DNA from: a bacterium
GTDB lineage: Bacteria > Electryoneota > RPQS01
DNA: 64,000 nt
Assembly (NCBI GenBank): GCA_016703065.1
Contig: JADJCU010000003.1
Location: 137,045-201,044, forward strand
Direction of reading: 5' to 3'
A program made the position numbers and the translations under genes. This document shows positions 17,404 to 49,200 of this stretch, in pieces. The notes beneath the pieces are model-generated. The model did no database searches. It saw nothing but the letters and a program-made list of their open reading frames with translations, and had not been told where the DNA came from. Every line of letters begins with the position of its first letter. Within the stretch, counting starts at the first letter, position 1.

Positions 17404-17406
17404 ATC

Positions 17407-20327: not shown

Positions 20328-20362
20328 AGTGAGTTGTCTTTTCTGCTTGGAAATATGCGGAA

Positions 20363-21930: not shown

Positions 21931-21931
21931 A

Positions 21932-23571: not shown

Positions 23572-23572
23572 C

Positions 23573-26144: not shown

Positions 26145-26162
26145 GTCGCGGATGGTACTCCG

Positions 26163-26456
26163 TTACGCTCCCGAGCCGCCGTAAAAAGCGCGCACGGCGT
26201 CGCACACTTCAGCGACCTCCGCGTCCGTCAGCTCGGAAGACATCGGCAGCGCCACGGTCTCTTTGGCGAGCATCTCTGAAACCGGGAAACTGCCCTCCTT
26301 GTAGCCAAGATCGCTGAAACACTTCTGCAAATGCAGCGGTACGGGATAGTAAATCATGTTCCCAATGCCGCGTGACTTCAGGAACTCCATCAATTCGTCA
26401 CGACGCGGCGCGCGCAGAACGTATTGATGATAAGTGAACCGCGCCGGGTTCTTCAA
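26163..26456 (-). CDS. DegT/DnrJ/EryC1/StrS aminotransferase, C-terminal fragment
   Basis: FTYHQYVLRAPRRDELMEFLKSRGIGNMIYYPVPLHLQ is the C-terminal half of sugar aminotransferases. Confidence 0.75.
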   Translation of the reverse strand: MKNPARFTYHQYVLRAPRRDELMEFLKSRGIGNMIYYPVPLHLQKCFSDLGYKEGSFPVSEMLAKETVALPMSSELTDAEVAEVCDAVRAFYGGSGA

Positions 26457-28217: not shown

Positions 28218-28220
28218 GAG

Positions 28221-29624: not shown

Positions 29625-29627
29625 GGA

Positions 29628-31124: not shown

Positions 31125-31138
31125 TCCCCGGCCTTCCC

Positions 31139-32041
31139 TTAGGTCAGGTAGACGATAGTGGCGGTGGCAATTACCCAGCAGGCCACGTTAATCAAGGTTG
31201 CGCGATCTTTGACGAGCAGCCGCGACGGATCACCGCCCTCGCCGCGATTGTAGATCAGGTACAGATATCGGAACAGGCCGTACACGACAAATGGCAGTGT
31301 CCAGAACAGCGCGCGTGTGCCGTAGTGCTTAAACGTGTCGTCGGAAATCGTGTATAAGCTGTACGCCACCAACGTCGCGGCGCAAAGGGCGGCGAGCATC
31401 TGATCGATAAACGTCAAACTGTAACCCGCCAGACTTGGTCTGTGGATCGCGGCGCTCTCTCCAAGCAGCGCAATTTCATGCCTCCGTTTGGCGAGAGCCA
31501 AAAAGAGCGAGAGCAGAAACGCACACAGAATGAGCCAATAGGACAGATAGACTTCCGGCAGCATCGCGCGAATCACGGCCACGCCGCCGACGGCACGCAG
31601 CACGAATCCCATCGAGAGCAGTAACACGTCAAGAATCACGGCGCGTTTCAGGCCCAACGAATAGGCGAGATTCGCCGCGAGGTACGCGATGGCAATCCCG
31701 CCGAAATAGAGATCGAGCCAAAACGCCCACGCAATGCCCGCCGTGCCGAGCACGCCCGACACGAGCAGCGCAGTCGATGGCGAGATGCGTCCCGACGGGA
31801 GCGGACGGTTCTTCTTCTTCGGATGTTCGCGGTCCGCCTGAAGATCGAGCAGATCATTCAGCGCATAGACCGCAGATGAGAGCATACAGAATGCTGCGAA
31901 CCCTTGCAGGGCGCGCAGAATCACCTCGGGGGAATCTATGACCACACGCGCCGGCGAAAAGAGCACGGCTGCGAAGATGATCATGTTCTTCGACCACTGC
32001 GCGGGGCGCAGCAACTCCAGCGTTGCGGAGAGCGCTTTCAC
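31139..32041 (-). CDS. UbiA-family prenyltransferase, decaprenyl-phosphate phosphoribosyltransferase (DPPR synthase)-like
   Basis: Polytopic membrane protein carrying ALNDLLDLQADREHPKKKNRPLPSGRIS. This is the NDxxDxxxD motif followed by an HP-K-K/R-RP segment, as in mycobacterial UbiA (Rv3806c) as I recall it. Confidence 0.75.
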   Translation of the reverse strand: MKALSATLELLRPAQWSKNMIIFAAVLFSPARVVIDSPEVILRALQGFAAFCMLSSAVYALNDLLDLQADREHPKKKNRPLPSGRISPSTALLVSGVLGTAGIAWAFWLDLYFGGIAIAYLAANLAYSLGLKRAVILDVLLLSMGFVLRAVGGVAVIRAMLPEVYLSYWLILCAFLLSLFLALAKRRHEIALLGESAAIHRPSLAGYSLTFIDQMLAALCAATLVAYSLYTISDDTFKHYGTRALFWTLPFVVYGLFRYLYLIYNRGEGGDPSRLLVKDRATLINVACWVIATATIVYLT

Positions 32042-32055
32042 GTCAACCCGCGCGC

Positions 32056-32619
32056 TTAGAGTTTCACCACGTTGTCGCGCTTTGCCATGCTCGCCGTCGC
32101 GTTGCGCGCGTCGAAGACGAGCGCGACATGGTCGGCCAGCACGTCATAGTCAATGCAGCGGTGATCGGTGCAGATCACCGCCAAGTCGTACTTCTTGAGC
32201 GTCGCCGGATCGAAAGGTACGCTCTTGTGATCGTGATTTGCCGTCGTGACTTCGGGAATATACGGATCGTGATAGTCCACGGTCGCGCCGCGCTTCATCA
32301 GCAATTCGATGATATCGAGCGACGGAGACTCACGCACGTCGTCGATATCCCGTTTGTACGCCACTCCCATGACAAGTGCTTTCGCTCCCTTTACGGCGCG
32401 TCCGCGTTCGTTCAGGGCGTCCGCGACGCGCGACACGACGTATTCAGGCATGCTCGTGTTGATATCGTCGGCAAGTTCGATGAAGCGCGCACGGTATTTC
32501 AGCGTCTTGAGCTTCCACGAGAGATAGATTGGATCAATCGGAATACAGTGACCGCCCAGACCCGGTCCGGGATAGAACGGCATGAAGCCGAACGGCTTGG
32601 TCGACGCCGCGCGAATCAC
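32056..32619 (-). CDS. UDP-N-acetyl-hexosamine 6-dehydrogenase (TviB/WbpA/WecC-like), C-terminal part after an in-frame TAA
   Basis: [29 protein letters not shown] plus the C-terminal UDP-binding domain. It is in the same frame as the upstream part. Confidence 0.8.
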   Translation of the reverse strand: [187 protein letters not shown]

Positions 32620-33363
32620 TTACCACACATCGACACCGAGAATATTACACATGATCGCCAGCTCGTTCACGAGTCCGATATTAATCGAGCGGAACGTGTT
32701 TTCGAGCAGCTTCACCAATTCAGCGGCCTGCGTGCTCGACACGGGCACGATGTGGTCGATTACGCGTCCGTAAATCGCTTGCGCAACGTCGAGACACTCG
32801 GGCGTCGTGCCACCCATGACTTTGGGCGTATTGTGCGTGCCGTACTTCTCGTTGCCCGGATCAACGCGCTCGGGCGAAAAGGCGATGAACACGTCTTTCC
32901 CGACTTTCAGGCCCTTCTCTTCGAAGGCAGGCACCATCAGTTCGTCGGTGGTACCGGGATAGGTCGTGCTCTCGAGCACAATCAACAAACCGGGATGGGC
33001 GTACTTGAGGATTTCATCCCGCGACGCGAGGATATACGAAATATCAGGGTCGCCCGTCTTACGGAGCGGTGTGGGCACGCAAATCGAAATCGCGTCGAGG
33101 TCACGAATGACCGAGTAATCCGACGTCGCTTCGAGCTTTCCAGCCTTGACGAGCCGTGCGAGTTCGGCATGGTCGACGTCCATGACATAGTTCTCGCCGC
33201 GATTGATGCGGTTGACCTTGTCTTGTATAACGTCTATGCCGGTAACCCGGATTCCCTTAGCGGCAAACTGGACGGCCAGAGGCAGTCCGACATAGCCCAG
33301 ACCGATGACGCCCACGCGCAGCGAACCGTCCTGGGCCTTCTTCTTTAACTCGTTCAGAATCAT
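32620..33363 (-). CDS. UDP-N-acetyl-hexosamine 6-dehydrogenase, N-terminal part (ends at in-frame TAA 32620-32622)
   Basis: [20 protein letters not shown] Rossmann start. The start is set at ATG 33363 (RBS GGAAGGA) because a -10-like TATATT abuts the ORF-track ATG at 33399. Confidence 0.8.
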   Translation of the reverse strand: [247 protein letters not shown]

Positions 33364-33401
33364 AATATTCTGCCAATCCTTCCGAGAAATCGGTGACATA
33401 A

Positions 33402-33430
33402 AATATACGCAGAGAACTGCAAAAAAGCAA
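33402..33430 (-). promoter_or_regulatory. sigma70-like promoter candidate for the polysaccharide operon
   Basis: The minus strand reads TTGCTT - 17 nt - TATATT, ending about 38 nt upstream of ATG 33363. Confidence 0.4.
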
Positions 33431-33458
33431 TGAAAAAGGGGCCGACCGACGACCCCCT
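33431..33458 (-). terminator. weak GC stem plus T-tract downstream of the methyltransferase gene
   Basis: The minus strand reads AGGGG-12 nt loop-CCCCT followed by TTTTTCATTGCTTTTTT. The stem is short, so confidence is low. Confidence 0.3.
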
Positions 33459-33705
33459 AAAGGTGCTTCGCAATTGTTATACCGTTATTTACGCCGAATT
33501 GCCTCTTGCACTAATGACCCTAAGTAACTAAACAGTCTCACACTTCAAGACCAATTGTCCATTTTCCGTCGCCGCAGTAAGCAAAGTGACCCGCCCGAAT
33601 CACGCCAAAGCCTCAAATCGTGGCACCATTCTGATGCCGCAGCAGCTGACGAATCCCTCCGGTCTCTCCCACTCCGTTCGCGGGGACGGGCCGGGGGATG
33701 GGGTC

Positions 33706-35427
33706 TCACTCCAACTCCAATTCCGAATTCCCCGCGCTCTTCTTCCTCACTTTCGGCGCCTTCTTGAACGTCGGGTCGCTCCACCCCGCGGTCGCAATCG
33801 GCGGCAAATCCGGTTTGTGTCCTTCCAGCAACTTCTCAATCGTGAGAATCTGCACCTTCTGATGTTTCGTGCCGCTAAACTCGCTATGATAAAACCCCGC
33901 GCTGGCGGCTTCCTTGATCATTTCTCGTGTCGGTTCATTCAGCGTAATGAGCAGCCCTATCGCGGCCTTCTCGCGCTCCATTGTCCCCACCAAATCCCGC
34001 ACATGCGGCGAACTCGTCTTGCCGCCCTTCACCGAAATCAAAATCTGCTCGGGATGCCGATCCTTCCCCTCGAAGAACGTGCGCCGTCCGTCAATCCCTC
34101 GGTCCGCGCCCTTCTTCTGCTCTTCAGGCCGCGCCCCCACCAATCCCAACGCCCACCACTGAAACTGATACTTGTCCTGCTCCGCCAGTTCAACCGCCCC
34201 TTCCAAATCCACCGGCTCACCCACCACGCGGTACGTCTCTGATCTCCCCCCAAATCTGTCTGCAGATTTGGGGGGACTAAGGTGGGTAGCTTTCCGAGCG
34301 GGGGGGATAGGGGGGGCCTTCTCATGCACCGCCACAATCCCGTACGCATCCAACAACCGCTTCTTAATCAGCGTAATCGCCAAATGCGTAATATCAATTC
34401 CCAACCACTTCCGATTCAATTTTTGCGCAACCGCCACCGCCGTTCCGCACCCGCAAAACGGATCAAGCACCACATCACCCTCATTCGTACTCGCACCAAT
34501 GATTCGCTCCAATAGCGCCTCTGGCTTCTGTGTTGGGTAACCGAGGTTTTCGTGCATTGAACCGTGCAGGTGTTCTATGTCGTCCCAATAGTCAGTAACG
34601 GGCGTCCCTTGCATTTCATCGAGGTAACGCTTGTAGGCCACTACTTTCGCATTTCCTTGAAGAACTACTCTTCCTGCCTTCCACTCCCGTGTCATACGAT
34701 CCTTTGTCCACCGCCACACGCGCGTCACACCGCTTTTGGGCGGAAACTCATATGTTAGGTTGGGGCGATTCTTATTTGGATTTGCAAGATTGTCAAGTCG
34801 GTATCGTCTACCGGTTTCTTCTTCTACATGCTTATAGAATTTCTCAACATATGAATCATCGTGCGCAGTGTACTGCTGATTGTATGTTGCCTTCGATCCC
34901 TTTGAGTAAAAGAGAATAATGTCATGCGCACGCGACATTCTCAACGTGTTGTGTGATTTCGGTTGAGATCTCCGCCAACTAATCTCATTCCTAAAATTCA
35001 CCGCCCCAAACACCGCATCCATCAACAATTTTAAATAATGACTCGCCGTCGGATCGCAATGCAGATAAATCGAACCCGTCGGCTTCAACACGCGCCTCAA
35101 CCCCACCAGACACGGTGCCATGTTCGCCAGATACGCCATCATGTCGTTCTCGCCCAAGAAGCGGTGAAACGCGACCAACAAATCGCCCGCCTTGCCGCCC
35201 TGCGACACCACATGCTCGAACCACTTGGCCGATTCCGCGTTCCAATGCCACGTATCTTCAAACGCCATGATTTGCGCCGCGCTCTTTTCGCCCGACTGCT
35301 CGGCAAACAAGACGTTGTAATCCTGATTGCTCTTAAACGGCGGATCAAGATAAATCAAATCCACCGACTCGTCTTTGACATAGCGCGGCAGGATGTCGCG
35401 GTTGTCGCCATAATAGAGAGTGTTCAT
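33706..35427 (-). CDS. beta-class N6/N4 DNA methyltransferase fused to a C-terminal Mrr-type restriction-endonuclease domain
   Basis: Motif IV IYLDPPFKSNQDYN precedes motif I DPFCGCGTAVAVA, the beta order of the N6_N4_Mtase family. The C-terminus GADRGIDGRRTF...ILISVKGGK is an Mrr_cat-like D...(S/Q)xK core. The start is set at ATG 35427 (MNTLYYGDN); the ORF track uses TTG 35442. Confidence 0.85.
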   Translation of the reverse strand: MNTLYYGDNRDILPRYVKDESVDLIYLDPPFKSNQDYNVLFAEQSGEKSAAQIMAFEDTWHWNAESAKWFEHVVSQGGKAGDLLVAFHRFLGENDMMAYLANMAPCLVGLRRVLKPTGSIYLHCDPTASHYLKLLMDAVFGAVNFRNEISWRRSQPKSHNTLRMSRAHDIILFYSKGSKATYNQQYTAHDDSYVEKFYKHVEEETGRRYRLDNLANPNKNRPNLTYEFPPKSGVTRVWRWTKDRMTREWKAGRVVLQGNAKVVAYKRYLDEMQGTPVTDYWDDIEHLHGSMHENLGYPTQKPEALLERIIGASTNEGDVVLDPFCGCGTAVAVAQKLNRKWLGIDITHLAITLIKKRLLDAYGIVAVHEKAPPIPPARKATHLSPPKSADRFGGRSETYRVVGEPVDLEGAVELAEQDKYQFQWWALGLVGARPEEQKKGADRGIDGRRTFFEGKDRHPEQILISVKGGKTSSPHVRDLVGTMEREKAAIGLLITLNEPTREMIKEAASAGFYHSEFSGTKHQKVQILTIEKLLEGHKPDLPPIATAGWSDPTFKKAPKVRKKSAGNSELELE

Positions 35428-35433
35428 ACCGAG

Positions 35434-35462
35434 AAAGTACAAGAGCTAAGGGGGATTGTCAA
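35434..35462 (-). promoter_or_regulatory. sigma70-like promoter candidate of the methyltransferase gene (near-leaderless)
   Basis: The minus strand reads TTGACA - 17 nt - TACTTT. Only 6 nt separate the -10 hexamer from ATG 35427. Confidence 0.35.
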
Positions 35463-35554: not shown

Positions 35555-36910
35555 CTATTGCACGCTCAGCAAATAGACCCTGCCCATATTCTCCGCGGTT
35601 TCGTGGTCCCACCAACGCGCACCAACCACGATGTCAGCCGCGCCGTTGCCATCAAGGTCACCGAGCGCCGCAACGCTGTTGCCCGCCGCATCGGCGATAT
35701 TCTCGCCACTGAACTGGTAGAAATCCGTCTCCCAGCCGCCATAATAGAACGACACGACGCCCCGACTTTGCGCGGCATTCGAAGCCTGCGCCGCCCAGTC
35801 GCCCTTGCCGTCCTTGTTCATGTCACCCAGCGAGAACACCTTCTCGCCAAAGCGCCCGGCCTCATTCGCGCCCAGGAACGTCGCTGAAGGCGCATCCGGC
35901 ATCGTCGCCGCTCCGTAATAGACATAAACCCGGCCCAACTGCTTGCCGCTCGACGTGTACTGCGGCGCGCCGACCACAAGGTCCGCAATCTTGTCGCCGT
36001 TAACATCAGGGACGACGACCGCCGACCAGCCGTACTGGTCCTGAAAGCTCGTCAATTCACCCTTGTAGAGCTTCGTGGGCTTGTTGGCGTCAAAACCCTT
36101 GCCACCCTTGAAGAAATACACTGCGCCGTAATAAGTGGCCTCTGTGCCGTAATGCGGGGCGCCTACGACGAGATCAGCCTGACCGTCGCCCGTAAGATCA
36201 CCCGTCGACACGCACGAGCCGAATAGATCGTTCATCGTGCCGAGCTTGATTTCGAGGTCCGGGCTCTTGCCCAGCGAACCGTTAGCATTGCCGAACCACA
36301 CATACACGCGGCCAGAGGTCGCGCCCGACTTAGCGGAGTGCGGCGCGCCGACCACAAGATCGGCAAACTTATCGCCGTTAATATCGTGCGCGAGTGAAAT
36401 CGAGCGGCCGAACGAATCCTTGGATTCGCCCGCTGAGACCACCGCACCATTGGAGCCGAAGGTTGCGCCGCCAAGATAGAGATAGACCTTCCCAGCGGGC
36501 TTGGCACCCGTTCCCTGACCGCCTTCTGCGGCAATCGCGAGATCCGGCGTGCCATCGCCATTGAAATCACCGCTTGACATCGAGCTGCCAAAGAGCTCAC
36601 CATCATCCGATCCCGTGATCTTCATGACCGGAGTCTCGGCCAGCAGACCATCATGGATCAACACGGCGCCACGAGCCACCGGACCGGCATTCTCCCCCGT
36701 GTAGGACGCGGCATACAGCGGCGCGCCGCCCGTCCAGGCGTAAGCGCCTTCCACAGCAGAACCGAAATAGGCGCGCACTTCGGGGCCGTCCATGACGCGC
36801 AACAGGTACTTAGCGGCGGTATTGCGATTGGATTCCAATTGCGCGAGCGACAGCGCGTAAACCGCGAGGATCGCGACCGTCGAGACGAGAATATATCCCA
36901 CTCTCTTCAT
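35555..36910 (-). CDS. FG-GAP (integrin-alpha-like) repeat protein with N-terminal membrane anchor/signal
   Basis: Repeats such as FGSSMSSGDFNGDGTPDLAIAA, FGRSISLAHDINGDKFADLVVGAP and FGSCVSTGDLTGDGQADLVVGAP. The start is set at ATG 36910 (MKRVGYILVSTVAILAV). Confidence 0.8.
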   Translation of the reverse strand: MKRVGYILVSTVAILAVYALSLAQLESNRNTAAKYLLRVMDGPEVRAYFGSAVEGAYAWTGGAPLYAASYTGENAGPVARGAVLIHDGLLAETPVMKITGSDDGELFGSSMSSGDFNGDGTPDLAIAAEGGQGTGAKPAGKVYLYLGGATFGSNGAVVSAGESKDSFGRSISLAHDINGDKFADLVVGAPHSAKSGATSGRVYVWFGNANGSLGKSPDLEIKLGTMNDLFGSCVSTGDLTGDGQADLVVGAPHYGTEATYYGAVYFFKGGKGFDANKPTKLYKGELTSFQDQYGWSAVVVPDVNGDKIADLVVGAPQYTSSGKQLGRVYVYYGAATMPDAPSATFLGANEAGRFGEKVFSLGDMNKDGKGDWAAQASNAAQSRGVVSFYYGGWETDFYQFSGENIADAAGNSVAALGDLDGNGAADIVVGARWWDHETAENMGRVYLLSVQ

Positions 36911-37005
36911 GGCTATTCCCAGTTTTTTCGTGAGGTATTGGAGTGAGTCGAGGAGTGGCGGCCTTACGGACGCGGCACTCCTCGACAAGACGAGAGGCAG
37001 TCTAT

Positions 37006-37395
37006 CTATCTAAGGCTGACCCGAATCTGACCATGGTCGAATTCGACTTTCCAGCGCTTCAAGTGCTTGCGTCCGATCAAAATGTCAAAGCTATTCAAGT
37101 CGTACGAAGTCTCCGAAATCAACATCGTCTGCTTCGGCAACTCATGCCCAATGAACTCCATCAGTACGCGATGTCGGCCATCTCCGCTGTCAGGATCATA
37201 GCTCGAAGGCTGACCGTACGTCTTACGCATCAATGCGCTAAGTTCTTTTGAAGCCCACGAAAACTCATGCATTGGACTCAACAAAGCACGCAGTCCGTTG
37301 ACTTCAAGAGCATTCTCAAAGGTCGGACTTTGATTTCTCGGGATCTCGATACTGACAGCGACAACCCATAAATTCTCGGAAGACTCATTCGCCAT
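37006..37395 (-). CDS. hypothetical protein (129 aa)
   Basis: ORF in a lower-GC islet. The C-terminus FDILIGRKHLKRWKVEFDHGQIRVSL is reminiscent of retropepsin-like (clan AA) protease tails, but no D-T/S-G active site is seen. Confidence 0.4.
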   Translation of the reverse strand: MANESSENLWVVAVSIEIPRNQSPTFENALEVNGLRALLSPMHEFSWASKELSALMRKTYGQPSSYDPDSGDGRHRVLMEFIGHELPKQTMLISETSYDLNSFDILIGRKHLKRWKVEFDHGQIRVSLR

Positions 37396-37424
37396 GTCAG
37401 TGCGAACTCCCTAAGGTGCTTCAA

Positions 37425-37745
37425 TCAGAGAACGCGCGCCCGCCTCTTCTTCTGCATGATGATCTCAAGATCATCCTTTTCCTGGACGATGAACTTTGCG
37501 CGACCGGCCTTGGCATAACCAAGCAGAAAGGCCTCATCGAGAGAATCGCAGTCCCCAAGCAAACCTGCTTGGCCCCAAACGATGTAGTCGCGCACTGCTG
37601 GGCTACGCAGCATCAGCTGGGTTGCATTCGACGCGAAGTTAGAGTACAGCCGTCGTCTTACATCCGCACCAACTTGCCCGCGCATACGCCCCCCAGGTCC
37701 ACGTTCAGGTCTAAATATGGCCCGAACTCTCTTGGTGCGTGGCAT
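37425..37745 (-). CDS. hypothetical basic protein (106 aa)
   Basis: ATG preceded by a strong RBS (GAAGGAGGA). Lies 29 nt upstream of the 129-aa ORF. No family recognised. Confidence 0.45.
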   Translation of the reverse strand: MPRTKRVRAIFRPERGPGGRMRGQVGADVRRRLYSNFASNATQLMLRSPAVRDYIVWGQAGLLGDCDSLDEAFLLGYAKAGRAKFIVQEKDDLEIIMQKKRRARVL

Positions 37746-37889
37746 TCACATCCTCCTTCGCTAATCCATTGGGTCTTGAAACGCACACCATACCAAACTA
37801 AGAACTGGTGATGTGCGTGTCAAGTTCCTGATATTATTGAAGAAATCTGACCCATGTTTGAAAACTACAGTGATATTCAAAGAGTTCGA

Positions 37890-37946: not shown

Positions 37947-38444
37947 TTACCGGACGCGCACGAGGTCGATGCGGCGATTCTGGTAACGGCCCTGCTCGTT
38001 GGCATTGCTGGCCACCGGCTTGGACGAACCATAACCCTTCGCAACGAGACGGCTCGTATCAACGCCGCGCGAGATCAGGTAGTTGCGAACGGCGTCCGCA
38101 CGTGCTTGCGAGAGCGGGTTGTTGATCGCATCGGAACCCGTGTTGTCGGTGTGACCCTGAACTTCAAGCAGCTGGATTTCCGGATGCTCGTTGATCAGCT
38201 TGGACGCACCGTCCAGCACCCGCGCGAATTCATCAGTGATTTCAGCCGAGCCCGTGGCGAAGTTGATGCCCGGGAAGCTGACGACACCACCGGTCTCCAT
38301 CCACACGGCTTCGATCGAATCCTTTTGCTCGGGGCGCAGCAGTTCGAGGCTGAGCTTGAGCGAGGTTGCCTTCGAAGATGTAACGGTGGATGAATTCCTT
38401 CGGACCGTCGGGCTTGCAAACCATCTCATCACGCTCACGCTCAC
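37947..38444 (-). CDS. OmpA C-terminal (peptidoglycan-binding) domain; third frame piece of the PorV-like/OmpA gene
   Basis: INFATGSAEITDEF...LEVQGHTDNTGSDAINNPLSQARADAVRNYL...NRRIDLVRV is a canonical OmpA_C. The first roughly 30 codons of the ORF look out-of-frame. Confidence 0.8.
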   Translation of the reverse strand: MSVSVMRWFASPTVRRNSSTVTSSKATSLKLSLELLRPEQKDSIEAVWMETGGVVSFPGINFATGSAEITDEFARVLDGASKLINEHPEIQLLEVQGHTDNTGSDAINNPLSQARADAVRNYLISRGVDTSRLVAKGYGSSKPVASNANEQGRYQNRRIDLVRVR

Positions 38445-38754
38445 GCTTCAGGCTGCCGAGGGCGCTTCTGAACTTGCCGCACTCGCGGAAGTAGAAGTTC
38501 ACGGACAAACGGTGATTCGCATCGAGGAAGCTCTGCGGCTCTTCGACAAAGGCGTACTGCAAACCGAAGCTCTTGAAGCCGAAGCCGAAGCCGGCCGTCA
38601 TGCCGGTATTCGCCTGTTCGGTTTCAATTGCGTCGTTGAGACCGGCGGCCAGATAGAAGCTGACGTTGTCGCTGACCTGCAGGTCATAGGCGCCGCCAAA
38701 GTCAATCGTGGTCTCTTCGTCCTGCACCTGCTGGACGTCGCCTGACAGGGTCAC
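38242..38754 (-). CDS. C-terminal half of the PorV/PorQ-like beta-barrel plus linker; second frame piece
   Basis: Amphipathic strands DFGGAYDLQVSDNVSFYLAAGL...GFGFGFKSFGLQYAFV...HRLSVNFYF. The sense is lost after about IFEG (near 38350-38390). Confidence 0.6.
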   Translation of the reverse strand: MTLSGDVQQVQDEETTIDFGGAYDLQVSDNVSFYLAAGLNDAIETEQANTGMTAGFGFGFKSFGLQYAFVEEPQSFLDANHRLSVNFYFRECGKFRSALGSLKRERERDEMVCKPDGPKEFIHRYIFEGNLAQAQPRTAAPRAKGFDRSRVDGDRWCRQLPGHQLRHGLG

Positions 38755-39389
38755 GCCTTCCAGGGACGCACACCCAAACCGAGGCGGGCTTCAAACGGCA
38801 CGTCGTCTTCGCCCTGCTTGGCCAGAGGGTCACGCATCATCATACCGATGGTGATCTCGTCATAGGGGCTGAACAACAAACCTGCATCGAAGCCGTAACC
38901 GTCGTTGTCCGCAAGGTCTTCCTGCAGATACTTCGCGCCAACACCGAGGGCGAAACCGCCGCCAAGGTAGCGTCCGTAGCTGAGCTGGAAGGCATTGCTG
39001 GACACATCGAAGGCACCGGTCTTATTCCCGCCGGCATCGTACTGGTTGATTCCGGTGATGCCGGAATTGAGCCAGGACAGACCGAAGGTACCGATACGAT
39101 CGGCACAGAGCGCCGCTCCGATGTAGTTGTGATTACGATCGGCCTTCATCCCACCGGTGTACATCAGCGACACTTCAAACTTGTGTAACCAATGCAGCGC
39201 TGCGGGATTCCAGTAGGCCGCAGTCGCGTCATTGGCAACGGCGGTAGCCGCCGTTCCCATGGCCATCGCCCGCGCACCAACACCCATCCGCAAATACGGA
39301 TTAGCATAGTTTTGCGCATACGTGGCGGAGGCGGTGCACAGCGTCAGCAGCACCAGGACCAACGCCGTATTGCGAATTCGGGATGACAT
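38751..39389 (-). CDS. PorV/PorQ (FadL-like) family outer-membrane barrel, N-terminal piece
   Basis: Strong RBS AGGAGGAAGGG and signal peptide MSSRIRNTALVLVLLTLCTASATYA. Signature GVGARAMAMGTAATAVANDATAAYWNPAAL. Confidence 0.7.
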   Translation of the reverse strand: MSSRIRNTALVLVLLTLCTASATYAQNYANPYLRMGVGARAMAMGTAATAVANDATAAYWNPAALHWLHKFEVSLMYTGGMKADRNHNYIGAALCADRIGTFGLSWLNSGITGINQYDAGGNKTGAFDVSSNAFQLSYGRYLGGGFALGVGAKYLQEDLADNDGYGFDAGLLFSPYDEITIGMMMRDPLAKQGEDDVPFEARLGLGVRPWKA

Positions 39390-39453
39390 ATCCCTTCCTC
39401 CTGTCCTATCGGCTATTCTCAAGTAACTCATATTCCGGATTTCTACAACTTCG

Positions 39454-39494: not shown

Positions 39495-42400
39495 TTAGTT
39501 CGAGGCCTTCTTGTAAGCCACCTTGACGATGTTGTTCATGGTCTGGCCGCTTCCAGAGACCTTCACGTTCGCAAGGTACACACCGTTGGCGACTTCTTCG
39601 CCATTCTCGTTGGTACCGGCCCACGTGATTTCCGTGTTATTGTCAGCCAGCGGGCCGTCGAAGACGTTCTTGACCAGACGACCGGAGAAGTCGTAGATCT
39701 TGATCGTTACGTGCGCGCCGTTTCCACTGCCCGCCTCGATCGGCAGGACGAAGGTCGTATGACCATCTTCCGGCGTGAACGGGTTCGGGTAGTTGTAGGT
39801 TTCGCCGCCCAACGTGATGGCACGGTGACCAACACGCTGACCCCATTCGCCCGTCGCCCGGTTGCCGGCGAGATCGCTGACTTCCGCATGCAGGCTGTAG
39901 TCGCCCGACTCAAGACCTTCGAAGGCCAAGGTCGCGTAACCCGTGAGGCCGTTTCCGGCGATGCTGACGTTCTTTACGCCACCAGCGTTGGTGCCGTCTT
40001 CAGTGGTCAGCCAGATATTGACACTGGCCGGATCCAGACCCACCGTACCGACTTCAGCGAAGTCAACGCGGAAGGTAATCGGTTCGCCGACTGCCAGCGG
40101 ATTCTCATCATCCGACAGCGGCTGTACGTTCGTGAATTCAGGCGCCGCTACGTCAACCGCGTAGACTTGGCTGATCGGTGCCATCGGCGCGCCGCTGGTG
40201 AAGTCACCATTGAGCGAAGCGCGAATGCTGTTCAGACCGGTCAAGTCGAAGTTGGCGCAGTAGGTCGCGGTATCACCGTTGAAGGAGACCGGCGCATCCA
40301 CCACGATCGGGGCATACACCAGTTCACCGTCCACCAGCATCGAGCCTTCCAGAGTCATCGTCACGGTGCTGCGGTCAACCTGGTCGCACTCAAAGTAGGC
40401 TTCGAAGCAATGCGGCATCGCCGACACGTGGAACGGCTCGAGGAAGTAGATGTTGCTCAGGCAGTCGTCGAAGCTGACAACCTGGAAGCTCCACAGCTTG
40501 CTCGTGGTGTTGCAGACATAGTCACAGACCGTCAGGACGGCGGTGTACTGGCCTTCTTCAAGTCCGCCCACCCAGTTGATGAACTGGCCATCAACCTGCG
40601 CGTTCGGCATAAGGTCGGTCCACTGACCGTTATCCTGATTCAGCAGGCGGAATTCGATGCAATCCGGATCGACGCCGCTGTTGCCGTCAAGGCTGGTGAC
40701 GCCGCTCAGTACGTCGCGCCATGCACCAAGATCAAGCTTGGACGTGGAGAACGTGGTCTGGGTCGCGCCCTTGCCACTCTTGGTGTTCATACCAAGGAAA
40801 CCGGTGGTCGGGGCCGTGTTCTTATCCATCATGCTCGAGTTCTCACCCGGCAGGCTCAGGGCGCCGGCGTTTTCATCATCGAAGAAGTGAGCGCTGATCG
40901 TCACGAGCTGGTCGCCATTGACAACGCTGTTCTCCAGCGGGGTCAGGACATGGACAACCGGCGCGGCGTCATCAGCCACCCAGGTCTGCGTGACTTCGCT
41001 CGCCGTACCGTACTGGTCGGTCGCGGTCAGGACGATGCGTACATCGGTCGGGGCTCCGTAGCCGCCGAAGTCACCGAAGGTCGCGTTGCCTTCAACCGTG
41101 AACACCTGGTCGTACACGCTGTTGTTGTATGCCGGGCTGATGTCCATGGTCACGTGCGCCACAAGGTTACGCTCGATGATTGAACCGTCTTCGTCGTACA
41201 GACCGATGAAGTTGGCCACGATGCCGCCGTTGTTCACGTTGGCGCCGTCCATTTCAGAAACCGTGGCTGCGAAGTACAGCGGGCGATCCGGATTCCAGAA
41301 GCCGTTGTACTGGCAGGTCGCGTCTTCGTTCACGATGTAATCAGCAACCGGACCATTGCTCAGCGAACGGAACGTCCACGTCCAAGTCGCGAGGTTGCCG
41401 ACACAGTCTTCAGCGTACGCGTTCACCGTCCAGATACCAGCGATCGGGCTGGTCAGCACGACCTTGGCGCTGGAGAGAGTGCGCTCGATGAAATCTTCCT
41501 GATCTTCGTAGCGGGTCACGTTGCCGCGCGGATCAGCAATCACGAACCAGACGCGCTCGATATTAATACCTGAGCCGTTGTCGTCAAGCGGGTTGGTGAC
41601 TTCGCGGGAAGTGCGACCTTCGTTCTTAGTCGCGGAGGACTTGCCGGTCACGCTGCTCGTCGTTGCGCTGCCCTTAAGCAGGGTCGTCGCATCGCCGCCG
41701 CGCAGCATCAGGCTGCCTTCGCAATCGTCAGTGTAGATAACTTCGACCACCACACCACCGTCGTTCTGGACGCTGTCGCCGTCAGCCGGGTAGTTTGCGG
41801 TCTTCTGCGGTTCGCAACCGTCAGCCGTGTAGCGCTGCGAGGACTGGTTGTAACCGTCAACGTCGCCAGCCGTGAAGTAGATGTTCCGCGTCTCGACGAT
41901 GACCGACAGGCCGGTCTGGCCATCCGGGAAGCTCGTCGACAGCACGAAGTTCACTTCAACTTCATCACGTCCGTCCGGGTTAATCGTCGTCGGGCCGCTG
42001 ATCGGCGTGCTGTCCGGCAAGGTAATCACGCTATAGGTGATACCGTTCGGGGCAATCGGTGCCGATTCAACCGTGCTGACCACGAAGCTGAATTCCTGCG
42101 GATCGGTCGCATTGTACTCAGGATTGAACCAGGTACCGCACTCACCGTCCACGAATTCAACTGCCGGTCCCGGACAATCAACGTGCCACGTCCAAGTGAT
42201 ATTCTGGGTGTCGGTCGTACCGATGTTACCGGCACGGTCAGGCACCGCGATCGTGATCTGGTGATCGCCCGGCATGTAGAACGCATCGGCCGCTTCGCCA
42301 GAAGCTGCACCACCGAGGGTGAACACGAAGTCGTTAAGACCCGGTTGCAGAATCGTGAAGCCCAAACCTTCTGCCGAGGTATCCGCGGCGGTGAAGACGA

Positions 42401-43260
42401 CACCGTCGATCCAGAACTGTACCGTGCTCAGGTCGATACCCGCGGCACCGTAGCAGCAGCGGCCCCAGTCACTGATGGACGCCTGAATGGTCGGACGCTC
42501 GCCGCAGTTGAACACGGCCGGTTCGTAGTTAATCGGGTCTTCGTCATAGCGATCTCTGAAGCCCCAATCCTGGGTCCAGAAGAAGTCGTTGTCATTGTTG
42601 ATACAGTCGATACCGTCCTCGTTGGCCATGTCGTCACCGTCATCATTGATCGGGGCGCCAACCGGCGAGACCGGGGTGATGACCGGCGGAACGATATCCA
42701 CCGTGTAGCGGTAATCTTCCGTTTCGTCGTTGTAGTCACAGACGTTGTTGTAGACATGCCAGTGGGCGCATAGCGTCAGCGGGCAGTCTTCACCGTAGTA
42801 GTAGCCGGTCTCTTCATCGTACCAGTCATAGAAGACGTTGTCAATCAGGCCGTCCCACTGTACGGTGACAGAGGCGCGGTAACCGATCAGCACTTCGTTC
42901 TCCATGATCGGAGTGAAGGTCATGGCTTCGGCAGTGATTTGATGTACGTAGTTGGACTCATAGACTCCGCAATTGGCGAGGTCGAGGTAGACACTGATGG
43001 TGTCGATACCCGACTCACGATCCACGAGGTCCGCCCAGATGGTCGTCTCGACGTCGCCGATGTAGAAGGTCTCGGCATGCGCCGTCGGCGGCGTATTGTC
43101 TACGTAGAAGTTCGTGATGTTAGTCGCACGGTCATCGACGTAGAACTGGATGCTATGGACGCCCTGCGGCAGGCAGCCAAACCACGGCGGGCAGCTGTAG
43201 TAGTTCGGGTTGAATTCAACCGAGAAGATGCCGCTGATGTCGTCATAGTGGACATCGAAG
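39495..43260 (-). CDS. giant secreted modular protein, C-terminal segment ending in a T9SS/FlgD-Ig-type sorting domain
   Basis: The ORF-track ORF is 39495..43532, but its first roughly 90 codons are R/T/S-rich read-in. Protein-like sequence starts at FDVHYDDISGIFSVEFNPNYY (about 43260). The C-terminus reads NYPNPFTPEDGHTTFVL...VTIKIYDFSGRLVKNVF...GVYLANVKV. Confidence 0.85.
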
Positions 43261-46200
43261 TTCGTCGTAGTAGCAGTCTTCGTAGCCGTCGTAGTCTTCC
43301 ATCTCAACCGGCACACCGTCGTTAACGATACGGATACCGTCCAACCAAACGTCCACACGGTCCGGCGTCGGCGGATACTCGCCTTCACCCAGAACCACCC
43401 ACCACTGCGGCGTGCAGTCAACGACTGGCATACCGTTGTAGTTCGGCAGGTCTTCGTAGTAGACCGAGCAGTCGTCGCCGTTGTCGACGCGGACAAACTC
43501 GTCAATCGGGCGAATTGTTGTAATAAAGACACCGAAGCGAGCGCGATCCGGACACACCGACGTCAAGTCTGAAATGTCCCAATCAGGCGTCCACTGGAAG
43601 TCCACCGTACCGTTTTCAAGGTCGCGGTCGTTGTAGGTGATACCCCACTCCTGCCACATACCTTCATACTGGCCGGAAGCATCGCTGGCATCCCAGTTCC
43701 AGTAGGCCACCACGACTTGCCATTCTTCTGCGTTCTCCGGCAACAGGCTGTTGTCGAAGTGCATACGGAACGACGAGGCGGGCTGAACGATGTCAAGCTC
43801 TTCGAGATCGTCGGACTGAATTTCTTCAACCGTCGAAATCAAGGTGTAGTAGTACTGATAGGCCGGTACCAGGCTGTGCGACTGCTCAGGCAAGTACGGC
43901 TGGAACCACATGGAACCGCGCCATCCCGTGCCCCACGCAGGAACTGTGACTTCGAGGACGCCGTCTTCGCTGACCAGCGTACCATTCGAGCCGCCCTGGT
44001 AGTTGGCTTCATGGATGTCCATCGCGTAGGTGACGATCTCGATGAACGTATTGTCACCCTGCGTCACCTTGTTCGAGGTGAAGATCGTGACACGGCCATC
44101 TTCGTCTTCCAATTGGCACGGCAGCGTATTCGACGGCAACTCACCGCCGTAGTAGGACGAACCGGCTTCAGGCTCGATGCAAACGACACCGGCATTGATC
44201 AAGCAGTTTTCGGTGTAGTCTTCGAGCGTTGCGAGGACCCACGGCTGTTCTTCACCGTTGCTCGGGACGCGTACCCAATCCGGCGCGTAGATCTGGACTT
44301 CTTCCGTGACCGTCACATCCGTACGGCGCCAGACTGGCGGGTTCGGATCGATGTTACCGGTTTCATCCCAGGCCACCGCACGGAACCAGGCATTCGCCGG
44401 GTACTCGTTGAACTCAAGCGTAACCTGCCACAGGTGCCAAGCCAGCCATTCGTTGCACTGGTCAACACGCGTGTTAATCGCATCCTGCAACGGAATCCAT
44501 GTTTGACCTTGGTTAGTCGAGACCTGGAACTGCACCTGCGAGGTCCAGTTCGGGTCGCAATCGTCGGTCACAGCGTACGGGTAGTCATCGCAACCGAATT
44601 CGTTGTCATCATCGTAACCGACGATGCAAGCGCGCTGGTACTGCGAATCTTCAATGTACACTTGGATCGTGTGCTCACTGCAGTTGCCTGCCTCATCCCA
44701 CGCGACCACAACAAGTGTGTACCAGGAGTTTGGCGTCAGCGCGGTAGTTGCCAGTTGTGCCGACCACAGCGGACCTTGCGAGTCACAACTGATCAGGTCG
44801 GGGCTGGTGTCTTCTTCACCGTAGAAGCAGACCTGTGCGATATTGCTGTTGCCGCCCTGACCGAAGACGTCTTCGGCGGTGGCAACCATATTGATGACAT
44901 CACCCCACGGGATAACCGTTTCGCTCGGCGTCATGTCACCGTTCACGTTGGTGAACATCACATCCGGCGGGCAGTTATCGACGCGCACCGTGTCAGCGAA
45001 CAGCACGTAGGCGATGTTCGATTCCGGAATCGCGTTGTCGCTCAGGGCCGCACGCAGGCTGATCGTGCCGCAGGCGTCCCACTCGCTAGTGAAGTACGTA
45101 TAGACATCCCACGAGTAGACCCAATTGCCGCTGACTCCGTTGTCCTGATAGGCATAGCCCCCCGGGTACCAGAATCCTTCGTCATCGGGCGACTCTGCCC
45201 ACTTCCACTCAAACCAGACGGTGTCAAGACCGGCATCCGTCTGCTGGTTGTTGAAGTGGACCCAGATGTCGTCGGGTTCATTCCATGTCGCTATCGGCGA
45301 CTGCTCCAGCGCGCAGTAACCACCGATCAGGCCATGCGAAGCAGGTCCATTCTCGGTAAGGTCATACGGCAGGCTGTGGTCGATGATGATGTTACGGCAA
45401 TCCGTGGCACGGGTCACAAGGTCACCACCAAGGTCGGCGGAACCGATCGCACATATCTGGCCCGGGCCTTCCGGCAGCGTCGTGACATCCCAGTATCCCG
45501 GACAGCTCGACCAGTCAGTCTGGCCAACGTTGCCCTGAACCGTGGTGATTTCGTGCGTGTCGCCTTCCGCAGTCACGTAGATGAAGCGGACATAATCCAG
45601 ATACGGTTCGGATTCGGCGTAGATACAGAGATTCGTTCCGTGAACATGCGGCGTGCCTTCAACGTCGTAGAAGTCGTTGATGGCGTAGATCGAGATGTTG
45701 GCTTCTTCATCGACCACCGTACCGGACCAACTGAATACGATCTCAGTCTGGTTGCAGTAATCCCAGCCGATCACGGCGAATTCATAAGTCCAGCCAACCA
45801 CGAGGTTCGTCGGAACCACCCAGTTGACACTGTACGGGAAGTTGTCATCCGCACCGAAGGAGGTCCAGTCGCCCGGATCACCCGTATGACGGTAGTAGAA
45901 CTCCACGTAACGCAGACCGAAGTTATCCGAAGCATTCGCGAGGAACGTATGCTCCGCGCCGCGCTCCAACTCGACCACCGGCGTCTGCGTCGGATCTTCC
46001 GTGAGGAATACCGAGGTAATCGTCGCGACCGGCGCTTCGTTATCTACGTTGACCATCAGAGTAGCGTGTTCAGGAGCGCCTTCAACACCACCGGCAAGGC
46101 TGCCGTCCATGTTGCCGAAATCGTCTTCCGCGAACGCGCCGATATAATAGGTGCCATTCAGCAGTTCGGTGTTCCACGTGCCTTCAACCGGGCCGAATGA

Positions 46201-49200
46201 GCCGGCGTCGCCTTCGACGCGCTCAATCACCGTCCACGGACCGGCGCTGCCCTGCTCAATGAAGGCGAACGTCACTGCGACGACATCCTGGTAGCTGACG
46301 TTGGCCGTCAGAACCACGTTACCGCTCAGGAAGATCACCGAGGAGTCCGGCGTGCAGTCCGTCGTCGTCACAAGGTTGTCCGCCATCGGGGCGTTATGGT
46401 CAACCGCTTGGAAGCGCTTGACATAACCCTGCGTGATCAACGACTGCCACTTCTCTTCCCACGTCGTGCCTTCACCGTAGTTCAAGAACTGCGTCCACGT
46501 GAGTTCGTTACCTGACTGATCTGTTGTCAGAACTGCGATATCATACCAGACACCGGGTTGCGGCGCCGGGCAATCGTTCGACCAGAGATATGTGTTGTCC
46601 TGACTGAACGGCGCAGTTGAATCATCGCCGAGGTTGCACCAGCTCCACATTTCGAGCGGGTGATCATCGGCACGCTTGATGAACCACATCGCACCGTAAG
46701 CATCTGCGGCGACTTCGTCAGCGCAGGCACCAAGGGTTACGACACTGTAGCGTTCGAGGCTGTCCGGAATCTGTTCTTCCGTCCAGTTGGCACAAGTCTC
46801 AAGCTGGTCAATGTGTGTATCGTTGTCCCAGACGAACACCTTGGCCATCGGCGCAATCACGTCGAAGGAAACAGTGTAGGTCTCGGTCTCTTCAAGGTTA
46901 CCGCACTCATCTTCCGCCCACGTGCGGACCTGAACATCGCCGGCCAAACCGGAGACATCCCAGACCACTGACCAGAAGATGTCATGATCCATACCGTCCC
47001 ACCACGGATTCGGCTCGCTGCCGTCCCACGGGCACGGTACTTCATCTGTTTCATCAACGCCGATTTCAAACCAGGTATTTCCGCCATCCGTGCTGTATTC
47101 GAAGTACATGCGCTGAATGTCGCCCGGATTCGTCGGCCAGTTGTCGCCGATCATCGAGAAGGCTTGCAGCCAGATGTCATGCGCATCGCCTAGGGCGCCA
47201 ACGCTGACAGTATGCGTCTGCTGATCAATGATCCACAGACCCTCCACACCCTGATCGCGATCATCGTCGCACCACGGCTGTTCGGTCAGACCGACCGACC
47301 ACAGCATCGAGGCCGGCGGCGTCGTATCGAAGATGTGAACATTGATCACGTGGCCTTCATCAAAGGCTTCCATGACGCGCTCCACATCGAGGTCGCCATT
47401 GCCCCAACGATCCTGAACGATCGGCACAATGTGCAACGAGTCGCCACATGTAATACCGTCAAGCCACAGTTCGACGTAGTGCGGGTTGCACGAGCTCGGG
47501 ATGTAGCCACACTGGGTCCATGCATCGGCTTGGTTCAGGTGCCAGATGTTCTTGCACCAAACCTGAACGATGTTATTCGTTTGAGTTGAGTCATCCGGGG
47601 TCAGACCGTCAGTCCAGGCAACCCACAGGTTGGCAGGTTGCTCGTCACCCGAGTTGATTTCGAACCAGACATCGTCACCGGGGGCAACCGGCTCGCCGTT
47701 GACTTCGATCACGTCGGCCACAGGCGCGCCATGATCAACGTCCACCCAGAACTCGTCGAGCATTTCGAGCGGTTCGATCTGGCAGATAGCATCGTGCGCA
47801 CGGGCCCAGACGCGGTAGCGACCACTCGGGTACAGGGCAACGCCTTCATCCGTCGTGTCGGCAAGGTGCCAGTAGATACACCAGTTCGGGTTGTTGTGCG
47901 AATCGAACGTCGGGTCCCACCACGTCGTGTCGACTGCGGTGGCCGTGACGCCGGCTTCTTCACTCTCGACGTACAGGACCATGTACCATACATCCTGTTC
48001 GTAGACCGGCAACACGCCGCATATCTGGACGCTCTGGTCACCACCGATTTCGGTCGTGCCGTCGAGAATCTCGTCCGTGATCGTGTTGCTTTCACCCTCG
48101 GTACAATCGTAACCCGTGTAGGTCAGGGACTGGATATCCGTGTGTTCCGGAAGCGTCGGGAAGCAGTCGATGCAAACAAGGCTCGTCGATTCTTCGTTGC
48201 AATCGGTCGTGACGATCACGCTGTCAACATTGCCCTGGCAATCCGAGAAGTGCACCGTGAAGGTGTAGCAACCGTAGTCCAGCGCAACGATCTGCTGTTG
48301 ACCGTCGCCCTCGCCTTCACCGATGTAGGCGTAGCGGTTCTCCATCCAGTACTGACACAGGTCTCCGTCAAAGTCGAACGTCCATTCGTCGTCGTCAAGA
48401 CGAGTCATGTCGCCGAACTCGTAATAGTAGTTTCCGTCTTCGCGCACCGCAGTCAGCCAGACGTTGTTCTCGTTGAACTCGCCGGACAACATATCCGGAT
48501 CGAAAGTCATCGTCACGACGGCAGAACCCGGCTCGATATCGAAGCGGCAACGGTCTCCGCAAGCGGTCTCAACCGGCAACGTACCCGCAGCCACGCCCGT
48601 ACCTGTCGGCGGAATCGCGTCGACATACAGGATCACGGCGTCGGACGTGTCATTACCGTTGTAGTCTTCGACGATCGCGCGAATCCAGAAGGCTTCCTGA
48701 TCGCCCACGTCTTCCGGCTGCGGATAGAACATGAAGCACTCAGTCGTGTCGCCATTCAGGCCGTTATTGATCGGATCCCAAATGGTGTTCACGTTGCGCC
48801 AGCCGGACACGTTGTCACCGTTGACTTCAGCATACTGAACAGTAATCGAAGCCAGACCGGTGTCAATGTTGGTCGGGGCAAAGACCACGCGAACGCAATA
48901 CGGATCACCGTCATGGATGTACAGCGAGGAATCAACTGTGCACGACGACGCAACTTCTTCAAGCGAGCTGGTTACATCGAGAATCTCGATGCGCGCAGCA
49001 GGCTGAATATCGTTCAGGCGGATCGTGATGTAGCACACATCGTTATCACACAGGTCGTCATTCCAGACCGTGTCGATGGCGATAACGCGCAACTGATACC
49101 AGCCTTCCGGATCGTTGTTCGTCTCTTCCATGTAGGCCAACAGGTCCCACGTTGCCGTGATCGTGTTGCCTTCGTGACGCACCGTATCATCGCTGAGCGT

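Follow-up and report, generated by a model that had tools for sequence, protein, structure and literature searches.

A PorV/PorQ-family barrel fused to an OmpA_C domain is encoded directly after a giant sorting-domain gene in an uncultured bacterial lineage

What do three overlapping pieces of open reading frame encode that lie directly downstream of a giant gene in contig JADJCU010000003.1 (assembly GCA_016703065.1), and does their product serve the giant protein? The window analyzed here is the 64,000-nucleotide stretch from positions 137,045 to 201,044 of that contig, and all coordinates below are those of the window. We found that the three pieces are one gene and encode one outer-membrane protein, in which a beta barrel of the PorV/PorQ family is followed by an OmpA_C domain. 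In related genomes, intact copies of this gene are found next to large genes whose products end in a sorting domain of the kind used in type IX secretion systems (T9SS). The coordinates of the features are collected in Table 1.

The minus-strand reading frames 38751..39431 (true start at the ATG at 39389), 38242..38754 and 37947..38444 overlap one another. When joined, they align from the first to the last residue with intact proteins of 470-484 amino acids, and the alignment is irregular at the two junctions only. About 60 such intact orthologous proteins or clusters were recovered from about 20 species, with 54-89% identity at 100% coverage, and the repaired protein of the window is 89% identical to one of them, designated P0001. 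At the first junction one base of a G run is absent, the window reading GGAAGGC-GTG where the homologues have GGAAGGGxGT; this makes a TGA at 38753..38751 in a place where the homologous proteins read PWKGVTL. The second junction is a gap of two nucleotides between 38364 and 38363, where DNA alignment sets AACC--TCG in the window against AACCCGTCG in the homologues, whose proteins have FEGNPSLKLSLE at this point. The repaired frame of 481 codons contains no further stop. Ratios of nonsynonymous to synonymous substitution rates (dN/dS) were 0.09-0.14 for the repaired gene against four orthologues and low for each piece (0.04-0.18), values that indicate purifying selection on all three. The initial annotation of this locus, made without database searches, had likewise joined the three pieces into one protein of about 480 residues, and the orthologues bear this out, as they encode one intact fusion protein and not separate, unrelated genes. 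It had assumed two breaks of one nucleotide each; this holds for the first break but not for the second.

The fusion protein begins with a Sec signal peptide that can be read directly from its sequence, and A25, Q26 and N27 at the predicted cleavage site are invariant in the orthologue alignment. An AlphaFold model of P0001, based on an alignment of 73 sequences and with an overall predicted local distance difference test score (pLDDT) of 80, has an N-terminal signal helix (residues 2-18), a short helical segment, 14 strands (69-304), a low-confidence linker (305-357) and an OmpA_C fold; pLDDT in the barrel blocks is 84-96, mostly above 85. The subfamily-level NCBIfam model PorV_fam (NF033709, curated cutoff 90 bits) matches the repaired window protein at 116.4 bits (E 1.9e-33, profile positions 3-326 of 326), P0001 at 125.7 bits and the first window piece alone at 100.2 bits. 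In a Foldseek search of the PDB with the model, the first two ranks were taken by PorV of F. johnsoniae, both chains coming from SprA complexes (8gl6_F, E 4.6e-12; 6h3i_F, E 1.1e-10), with template modeling (TM) scores of 0.63-0.66. The PorP_SprF model (PF11751, cutoff 22.3) gave no match at E<=0.01-1 with P0001 or with the window pieces, and only 17.8 bits with P0067, a second-tier relative; the OMP_b-brl and OmpA_membrane models gave none with the fusion protein. The barrel is therefore a member of the PorV/PorQ family and not of PorP/SprF, of a generic porin family or of the OmpA N-terminal domain family. These results agree with what had been read from the letters, namely a signal peptide, a PorV/PorQ-like barrel whose strands were to be counted in a predicted structure, and a canonical OmpA_C domain after a linker.

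The OmpA_C domain matches PF00691 (cutoff 27) at 82.4 bits in the third window piece and at 78.1 bits in the orthologue, and it aligns with 5wtp, 2k1s and other OmpA_C structures through the GHTD...RA motif. Residues D415 and R430, the predicted ligand contacts, are invariant across the orthologues. With the conserved Asp and Arg for contact with the peptide stem kept, the domain is canonical and would be expected to bind peptidoglycan. The model of PorE (NF052230, cutoff 600) reaches 65-68 bits, in the OmpA_C part only (profile positions 517-603). Between barrel and OmpA_C lies a linker of about 55 residues, and a 22-residue stretch of it, GPKEFIHRYIFEGNPSLKLSLE (about residues 329-350 of P0001), is almost invariant across the orthologues and more conserved than the barrel. 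Its pLDDT in the P0001 model is below 50 and no PDB chain aligns with it; it may serve as a docking motif for a periplasmic partner.

The gene directly upstream encodes a secreted protein of giant size, an orthologue of which is annotated at 7,452 amino acids in GCA_020637395.1. Pfam models match it at two P-domains, one Big_13 and one FlgD_ig domain, and nowhere else. The last 100 residues match the type-A sorting domain model TIGR04183 at 26.8-29.4 bits (cutoff 23), and the same C-terminal domain matches FlgD_ig at 33.5 bits (cutoff 27); PF18962 (21 bits) and the type-B model CHU_C (PF13585, 20.2 and 22.7 bits) are both below their cutoffs of 27. An AlphaFold model of this domain, made from an alignment with 8 database homologues, has seven strands at a pLDDT of 92. 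In the PDB it is matched best by two C-terminal domains from P. gingivalis, those of PorZ (5m11) and PorU (6za2), at 27-28% identity. PorZ and PorU carry the two type-A domains that stay uncleaved and are retained on PorQ and PorV, respectively (PMC10202324). A database search with the C-terminus of the giant protein returned 8 proteins in all, none of them a PorU or PorZ of this lineage. As a separate observation, glutamine is the first residue after the predicted signal cleavage in both the fusion protein (between TYA and QN, 39315) and the giant protein (between AQA and QI, 62263), which recalls the 'Q-rule' of Bacteroidetes (PMC5837995).

The genes of the two proteins are also paired in related genomes. 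With each species represented by a single genome, a scan found about 20 species that have a full-length fusion of 59-81% identity; these are labeled 'bacterium', 'Calditrichaeota bacterium HK-STAS-AABM5-4' or 'candidate division KSB1', and the 'Alphaproteobacteria' labels among them are evidently placeholders. At each of the 20 orthologous loci for which upstream sequence is available, the barrel gene has a reading frame that ends in a sorting domain directly upstream of it, and so it does in 14 of 14 loci of the next tier of relatives (31-39% identity). Adjacency was defined as a stop within 1,300 nt of the barrel gene, and the distance is 50-220 nt in most loci of both tiers; the orthologous loci mostly have a gap of 92-185 nt, and L003 has one of about 600 nt. 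The upstream frame in the orthologous loci is mostly longer than 3,200 amino acids and reaches the edge of the fetched DNA. The survey of relatives that the initial annotation had called for thus found the fusion beside a giant gene with a T9SS-type C-terminal domain at every orthologous locus for which there is upstream sequence.

What the barrel carries on its periplasmic side differs between relatives. In the next tier, Eisenbacteria have a barrel followed by TSP3 and OmpA_C, one lineage has the barrel alone, and Elusimicrobia have a barrel with C-terminal tetratricopeptide repeats (TPR). The combination of a PorV-family barrel with TPR and no OmpA_C was seen in four metagenome-assembled genomes (MAGs) labeled Elusimicrobia (L038, L039, L046, L057) and in one labeled Margulisiibacteriota (L077). 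The barrel-TPR gene comes directly after a giant gene with a sorting domain in L038, L039, L046 and L077, and no such gene was found upstream of it in L057. Because the downstream genes differ between lineages, being an FG-GAP gene and a polysaccharide cluster in the lineage of the window and housekeeping genes in the barrel-only lineage, the conserved unit is the two-gene pair. No separate OmpA or Pal gene was found beside the barrel-only relatives, whose downstream genes encode a NUDIX protein, alanine racemase and other housekeeping functions.

The fusion architecture is widespread. A profile search of 1.84 billion representatives gave 226,725 matches, mostly OmpA_C proteins since the OmpA_C columns had been kept in the profile, and the best 150 were used. 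Among these 150 are dozens of distinct 50%-identity clusters in which a PorV-family barrel is followed by one to three OmpA_C domains. Seven of ten representatives that were scanned again pass the PorV_fam cutoff; none of the ten reached the cutoff of a named equivalog over its full length, the scores above cutoff being those of OmpA_C-domain models summed over repeats. CHU_0125 was considered as a described relative and ruled out, as it is a Pal homologue that matches in the OmpA_C part only. We found no description of the architecture in the literature searched (on PorV-OmpA fusions, PorV-like proteins, and T9SS in KSB1, Electryoneota, Eisenbacteria and Elusimicrobia), nor a paper there describing the strict pairing with giant genes that end in a type-A-like C-terminal domain. 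The initial annotation had not known this architecture as a described T9SS component. The architecture is not rare, and NCBI already names its members 'PorV/PorQ family protein' or 'OmpA family protein', so that the family assignment itself is not new.

Other arrangements of barrel and sorting-domain genes were met among the fetched loci. L042, L043, L047 and L073 share a conserved set in which a gene for a sorting-domain protein of about 1,230 amino acids precedes a PorV/PorQ-family barrel gene, and in L043, L047 and L073 a second sorting-domain protein follows the barrel (about 865 amino acids; 657 in L073). The ~1,230-residue protein of L042 is split, and a third gene was not seen there. 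PorU was considered as the identity of the ~1,230-residue proteins and rejected: the L043 protein has no NCBIfam match, and the other three were judged by their homology to it. Two Roseivirga loci (L072 and L081, 10001..16151) encode PorV2 (NF052325, 487 bits) followed by a PorU2 of 1,709 amino acids (NF052324, 941 bits), a second barrel-sortase pair in a true Bacteroidota genome.

The local signals fit a two-gene transcript. The fusion ATG lies 105 nt after the TAA of the giant gene and is preceded by a strong ribosome-binding site, both as initially described. A strong hairpin stands in the same place after the fusion gene in 8 of 8 orthologous loci checked (L001, L005, L006, L007, L011, L017, L020, L024), with stems that differ in sequence. 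The perfect 14-bp stem reported for the window is indeed present, but it is not a canonical intrinsic terminator, having no T run, and a simple terminator scan made no call there. Probably it marks a 3' end of the two-gene unit or stabilizes its transcript.

Table 1. Features of the fusion gene, the giant gene and their surroundings in the window
Feature	Position	Strand	Details
Whole fusion gene, PorV/PorQ-family barrel and OmpA_C	37947..39389	-	481 codons after repair of two gaps
Sec signal peptide MSSRIRNTALVLVLLTLCTASATYA	39315..39389	-	predicted cleavage before QN; read from sequence
PorV/PorQ-family barrel, ending ...HRLSVNFYF	38488..39305	-	14 beta strands, preceded by an N-terminal helical segment
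Frame break 1, one base absent in G run	38755..38757 (about)	-	DNA alignment to L007, L020, L006, L024
Invariant linker motif GPKEFIHRYIFEGN(P)SLKLSLE	38344..38406	-	break 2 (38364/38363) falls inside
OmpA_C peptidoglycan-binding domain (predicted)	37950..38279	-	PF00691; GHTD...LSQARA motif intact
Giant secreted-protein gene	39495..62346	-	about 7,617 amino acids; signal peptide MRSKTLFVW...AQA/Q; 2-nt gap at about 43259
C-terminal sorting domain of giant protein, T9SS type-A-like Ig fold	39498..39797	-	TIGR04183, FlgD_ig, model
Shine-Dalgarno AGGAGG	39397..39402	-	8 nt before ATG 39389
Perfect 14-bp stem, 4-nt loop	37890..37921	-	begins 26 nt past the fusion stop codon
FG-GAP repeat protein gene	35555..36913	-	downstream neighbor in most orthologous loci of the lineage

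What might such a pair do? By analogy with characterized attachment systems, we propose, at roughly even odds, that the fusion protein is the cognate barrel that holds the C-terminal domain of the giant protein and ties that protein to peptidoglycan. After Sec export and removal of the signal peptide, the N-terminal 14-strand barrel would insert in the outer membrane, and the OmpA_C domain, on its periplasmic linker of about 55 residues, would bind peptidoglycan non-covalently. The fusion protein would be dedicated to the product of the gene directly upstream, the surface protein of ~7,600 residues, which would cross the outer membrane, perhaps by a T9SS-like export route, and whose uncleaved type-A-like C-terminal domain would remain on the outer face of the barrel. 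Because the barrel would be pinned to the cell wall, the giant protein would stay fixed in one place, and the peptidoglycan would take up the forces that pull on it. There is precedent for both halves of this scheme. Specific C-terminal domains are retained by cognate PorV-like barrels, that of PorU by PorV, that of PorZ by PorQ and those of type B by PorP/SprF (PMC10202324), and a complex of PorE, PorP and a type-B domain is known, through which non-mobile cargo has been proposed to be tied to the wall (PMC9143113). The fusion protein would be a one-polypeptide analogue of this cargo-PorP-PorE chain of Bacteroidota, with barrel and wall anchor in a single chain. Of this scheme, the analysis shows the gene structure, domain families, folds and conserved pairing; attachment of the C-terminal domain to the barrel, cargo retention, contact with peptidoglycan and a T9SS-like export route are inferred.

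One alternative is that the fusion protein is a general envelope tether of the OmpA/OprF type, with a FadL-fold barrel and no specific tie to the giant protein. A barrel followed by a canonical OmpA_C is the classic OmpA/OprF plan, the architecture is as widespread as described above, some clusters having two or three OmpA_C domains, and PorE, too, has been recast as a general tether (PMC12204202). We nevertheless consider this unlikely. The barrel gene adjoins a giant sorting-domain gene in 34 of 34 loci of the two nearest tiers, and the adjacency survives where the periplasmic module is missing, where TPR stand in for OmpA_C and where the downstream genes have wholly changed; such fidelity to one cargo gene is not what one expects of a housekeeping tether.

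Alternatively, the fusion protein could be a dedicated export helper, either a PorV-like shuttle that takes up the C-terminal domain at the translocon and passes it on, or part of a T9SS-independent export route, with OmpA_C serving only to fix the site of export. The best structural matches of the barrel are PorV chains bound to the SprA translocon and to the C-terminal domain of a substrate, and the pair also occurs in MAGs labeled Elusimicrobia and Margulisiibacteriota, for which a T9SS is unreported (PMC11285876). However, a 14-strand barrel with its N-terminal segment inside would be an implausible channel for a protein of 7,600 residues, and a shuttle pinned to peptidoglycan could not travel between complexes as PorV does. 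The C-terminal domain of the giant protein is also closer to the retained domains of PorU and PorZ than to any other solved structure. We give this explanation little credence.

The frame breaks raise the further question of whether the copy in the window is a genuine pseudogene, with both breaks true mutations and the module lost in this organism. Comparison with intact orthologous loci showed that the giant gene has a 2-nt gap of its own (about 43259), and nearby polysaccharide genes are hit too: a DegT-type aminotransferase gene has a 2-nt gap at about 26440, and a UDP-glucose dehydrogenase (UGDH) gene (32059..33372, minus strand) has an in-frame TAA at 32620..32622 by a point substitution where the orthologues have Glu (GVDVW-stop-VIRAA). 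Three of the gaps are of 2 nt, unlike the classic homopolymer error. However, the breaks are not limited to the module. Two more broken genes lie outside the part of the window that has orthologous sequence: a second UGDH paralogue (19022..20327, minus strand), split at about 19650-19700, and housekeeping rlmN (13831..about 14990, plus strand), which changes frame at about 14550. With the breaks of the fusion gene this makes seven lesions within 30 kb (14.5-43.3 kb), of which six are indels and one is a nonsense codon. Apart from its two gaps the fusion gene has no stop, retains 89% identity to an intact orthologue and shows a dN/dS of 0.04-0.18 in every piece, and the assemblies of its close relatives are long-read MAGs (contig names start with 'tig'). 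Since similar lesions strike other genes, including housekeeping rlmN, and the fusion gene otherwise appears to be under purifying selection, sequence or assembly error is most likely the cause of its breaks, and a true pseudogene is distinctly unlikely. Whatever the cause, the gene family is real and intact elsewhere. With regard to the UGDH gene, a selenocysteine codon at the catalytic site was considered for its in-frame stop and ruled out, as the TAA replaces Glu.

Finally, it is very improbable that the protein is a channel of the FadL/TodX type for hydrophobic compounds that happens to bear an OmpA_C domain: although Toluene_X (PF03349) gives a weak match, of 23.6-25 bits and E 8e-6 to 2e-5, with the N-terminal motif and FadL structures are among the Foldseek matches, that match is below the cutoff of 29.7 and covers only about 40-55 N-terminal residues, FadL aligns at TM 0.41-0.52 with a root-mean-square deviation of 8-11 (PorV, 0.63-0.66 and about 5), the barrel has about 275 residues against about 420 in FadL, and the gene context is a giant surface protein and not catabolic genes.

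Several observations weigh against the proposal that the fusion protein is a cognate, wall-bound barrel of a T9SS-like kind. No T9SS core gene, by which we mean the SprA/Sov translocon, PorK/L/M/N (GldK-N) and the PorU sortase, was found among the approximately 30 reading frames of the window scanned with Pfam and NCBIfam, nor in the 21-kb flanks of the orthologous loci; Roseivirga PorU2 (L072), used as a PorU-type seed, matched C-terminal domains only in the fetched loci. A possible T9SS has been described in several phyla of the Fibrobacteres-Chlorobi-Bacteroidetes (FCB) group, the lineage of the window not among them, and in none outside that group (PMC11285876). PorV-family barrels are also present in MAGs labeled Elusimicrobia, Poribacteria and Margulisiibacteriota, in which a T9SS is unreported (PMC11285876), and membership in the family is therefore no proof of a T9SS role. 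P0001 falls far short of the equivalog cutoffs for PorV (NF033710, 50.8 of 250 bits), PorQ (NF033711, 69.1 of 220) and PorV2 (NF052325, 89.4 of 325), as does the repaired window protein for PorQ (65.6 against 220) and PorV2 (82.9 against 325). One count in favor of the pairing is partly circular: across 1.33 Mb of loci, 46 of 57 reading frames ending in a sorting domain are the upstream neighbor of a barrel gene, but the hidden Markov model was built from the upstream proteins themselves. With TIGR04183 as an independent check, 39 of the 51 C-termini upstream give a match. Lastly, the fusion gene of the window is disrupted as sequenced, and the lineage is an uncultured group near AABM5-125-24/KSB1 with no cultured member known.

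A broader possibility is that the giant protein and a PorV-family barrel with an anchor module (OmpA_C, TSP3-OmpA_C or TPR) form a self-contained, ancient module for anchoring or export that is independent of the canonical T9SS of Bacteroidota, and from which PorU-PorV and PorZ-PorQ would be specialized descendants. The pair occurs in FCB-related candidate phyla and in MAGs labeled Elusimicrobia and Margulisiibacteriota. We regard this idea as doubtful and offer it tentatively.

Compared with known systems, the pair resembles PorV-PorU and PorQ-PorZ of P. gingivalis and F. johnsoniae. The barrels belong to the same family (NF033709) with 14 strands and PorV as the best structural match, the C-terminal Ig domain of the giant protein best matches those of PorU and PorZ, which are uncleaved and barrel-bound (PMC10202324), and in porU-porV, too, the partner gene comes before the barrel gene. 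However, the barrel here is fused to OmpA_C, while a periplasmic domain is missing from canonical PorV and PorQ; the fusion is far below the equivalog cutoffs for PorV, PorQ and PorV2; the partner of about 7,600 residues lacks the C25 sortase domain of PorU and the domains of PorZ; and the lineage is not Bacteroidota. The PorV2-PorU2 pair of Roseivirga (NF052325, NF052324) is similar in that a PorV-family paralogue stands beside a large sorting-domain protein, but the fusion, at 83-89 bits, stays below the 325 required for PorV2, the partner of PorV2 is a PorU-like sortase, and PorV2 has no OmpA_C.

The system of PorP/SprF, PorE and type-B cargo offers a different likeness: a cargo domain binds a 14-strand barrel encoded next to it, which leads to a peptidoglycan-bound OmpA_C (PMC9143113), a chain of contacts that would have its counterpart here and that has been proposed to fasten non-mobile proteins of the surface to the wall. 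PorE is a lipoprotein with TPR, beta-propeller, CRD and OmpA_C, and the periplasmic modules on the barrels of the relatives (none, TSP3 with OmpA_C, or TPR) echo its domain types, TPR and OmpA_C being both among them. The fusion barrel is nevertheless outside the PF11751 family of PorP/SprF, the domain of the giant protein is type-A-like and not type-B (CHU_C 20-23 bits against a cutoff of 27), and barrel and anchor are one polypeptide, without the TPR/propeller scaffold of PorE. OmpA, OprF and Omp38 share the order of an N-terminal outer-membrane barrel and a periplasmic OmpA_C, with an internal beta-signal ending in Phe, but OmpA has an 8-strand fold where the fusion has the 14-strand FadL/PorV fold, and the fusion gene is strictly coupled to a cargo gene. 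In Myxococcus, TraB is an OmpA_C-containing outer-membrane protein that is co-transcribed with the large surface receptor TraA and required for its function. The TSP3-OmpA_C tail of the second-tier relatives matches the TraB model (NF033763) at 100-136 bits; this match is limited to the C-terminal TSP3/OmpA_C part and far under the cutoff of 700, and there is no sign that the barrels are related.

The surroundings of the pair are more variable. The FG-GAP gene is absent from L003 (57% identity)/L004, L022 and other lineages, and it is outside the widely conserved pair. Between it and the hairpin of the fusion gene is an insert of about 860 nt (37006..37889) with a G+C content of 49-52%, compared with 58-62% around it; orthologous loci lack the insert and have about 100 nt in its place. 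It contains two minus-strand reading frames, 37006..37395 (129 amino acids), with no Pfam or NCBIfam match, and 37425..37745 (106 amino acids), scanned with NCBIfam only and without a match. Farther downstream, a sugar-nucleotide and polysaccharide cluster (24714..35442 and 16396..24733, both on the minus strand) is syntenic in the orthologous loci; it encodes UbiA, beta-helix proteins, epimerases, DegT, Bac_transf, NTP-transferases, a GHMP kinase and a SIS protein, among others, and could be a source of glycans for the giant protein or the cell surface. The giant protein is the one product of the window with a strong C-terminal sorting domain. A metalloprotease of the M4/M36 type with 958 amino acids (904..3780, plus strand) has a weak, partial TIGR04183 match near its C-terminus (19.5 bits, cutoff 23) and scores 31 bits with the model of T9SS-dependent M36 proteases; it may be a second cargo of type-A-like kind, without an adjoining barrel gene.

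How very large surface proteins of the T9SS type remain on cells is only partly understood. Type-A T9SS cargo is thought to be linked to anionic lipopolysaccharide and type-B cargo to be seated on PorP-like barrels. If our proposal is true, the pair described here would be a third solution, in which a type-A-like C-terminal domain is kept on its own PorV/PorQ-like barrel and the barrel is pinned to peptidoglycan, giving a mechanical path from a surface protein of 7,600 residues to the cell wall. As the pairing is strict and extends across several uncultured phyla, it supplies a simple genomic rule for predicting cognate pairs of cargo and barrel, and it offers a compact two-protein system for studying how such C-terminal domains are recognized by PorV-family barrels. 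It also bears on the reach of T9SS-like sorting beyond Bacteroidota, and would be of greater interest still to specialists of T9SS and the cell envelope if the pair works without a canonical T9SS.

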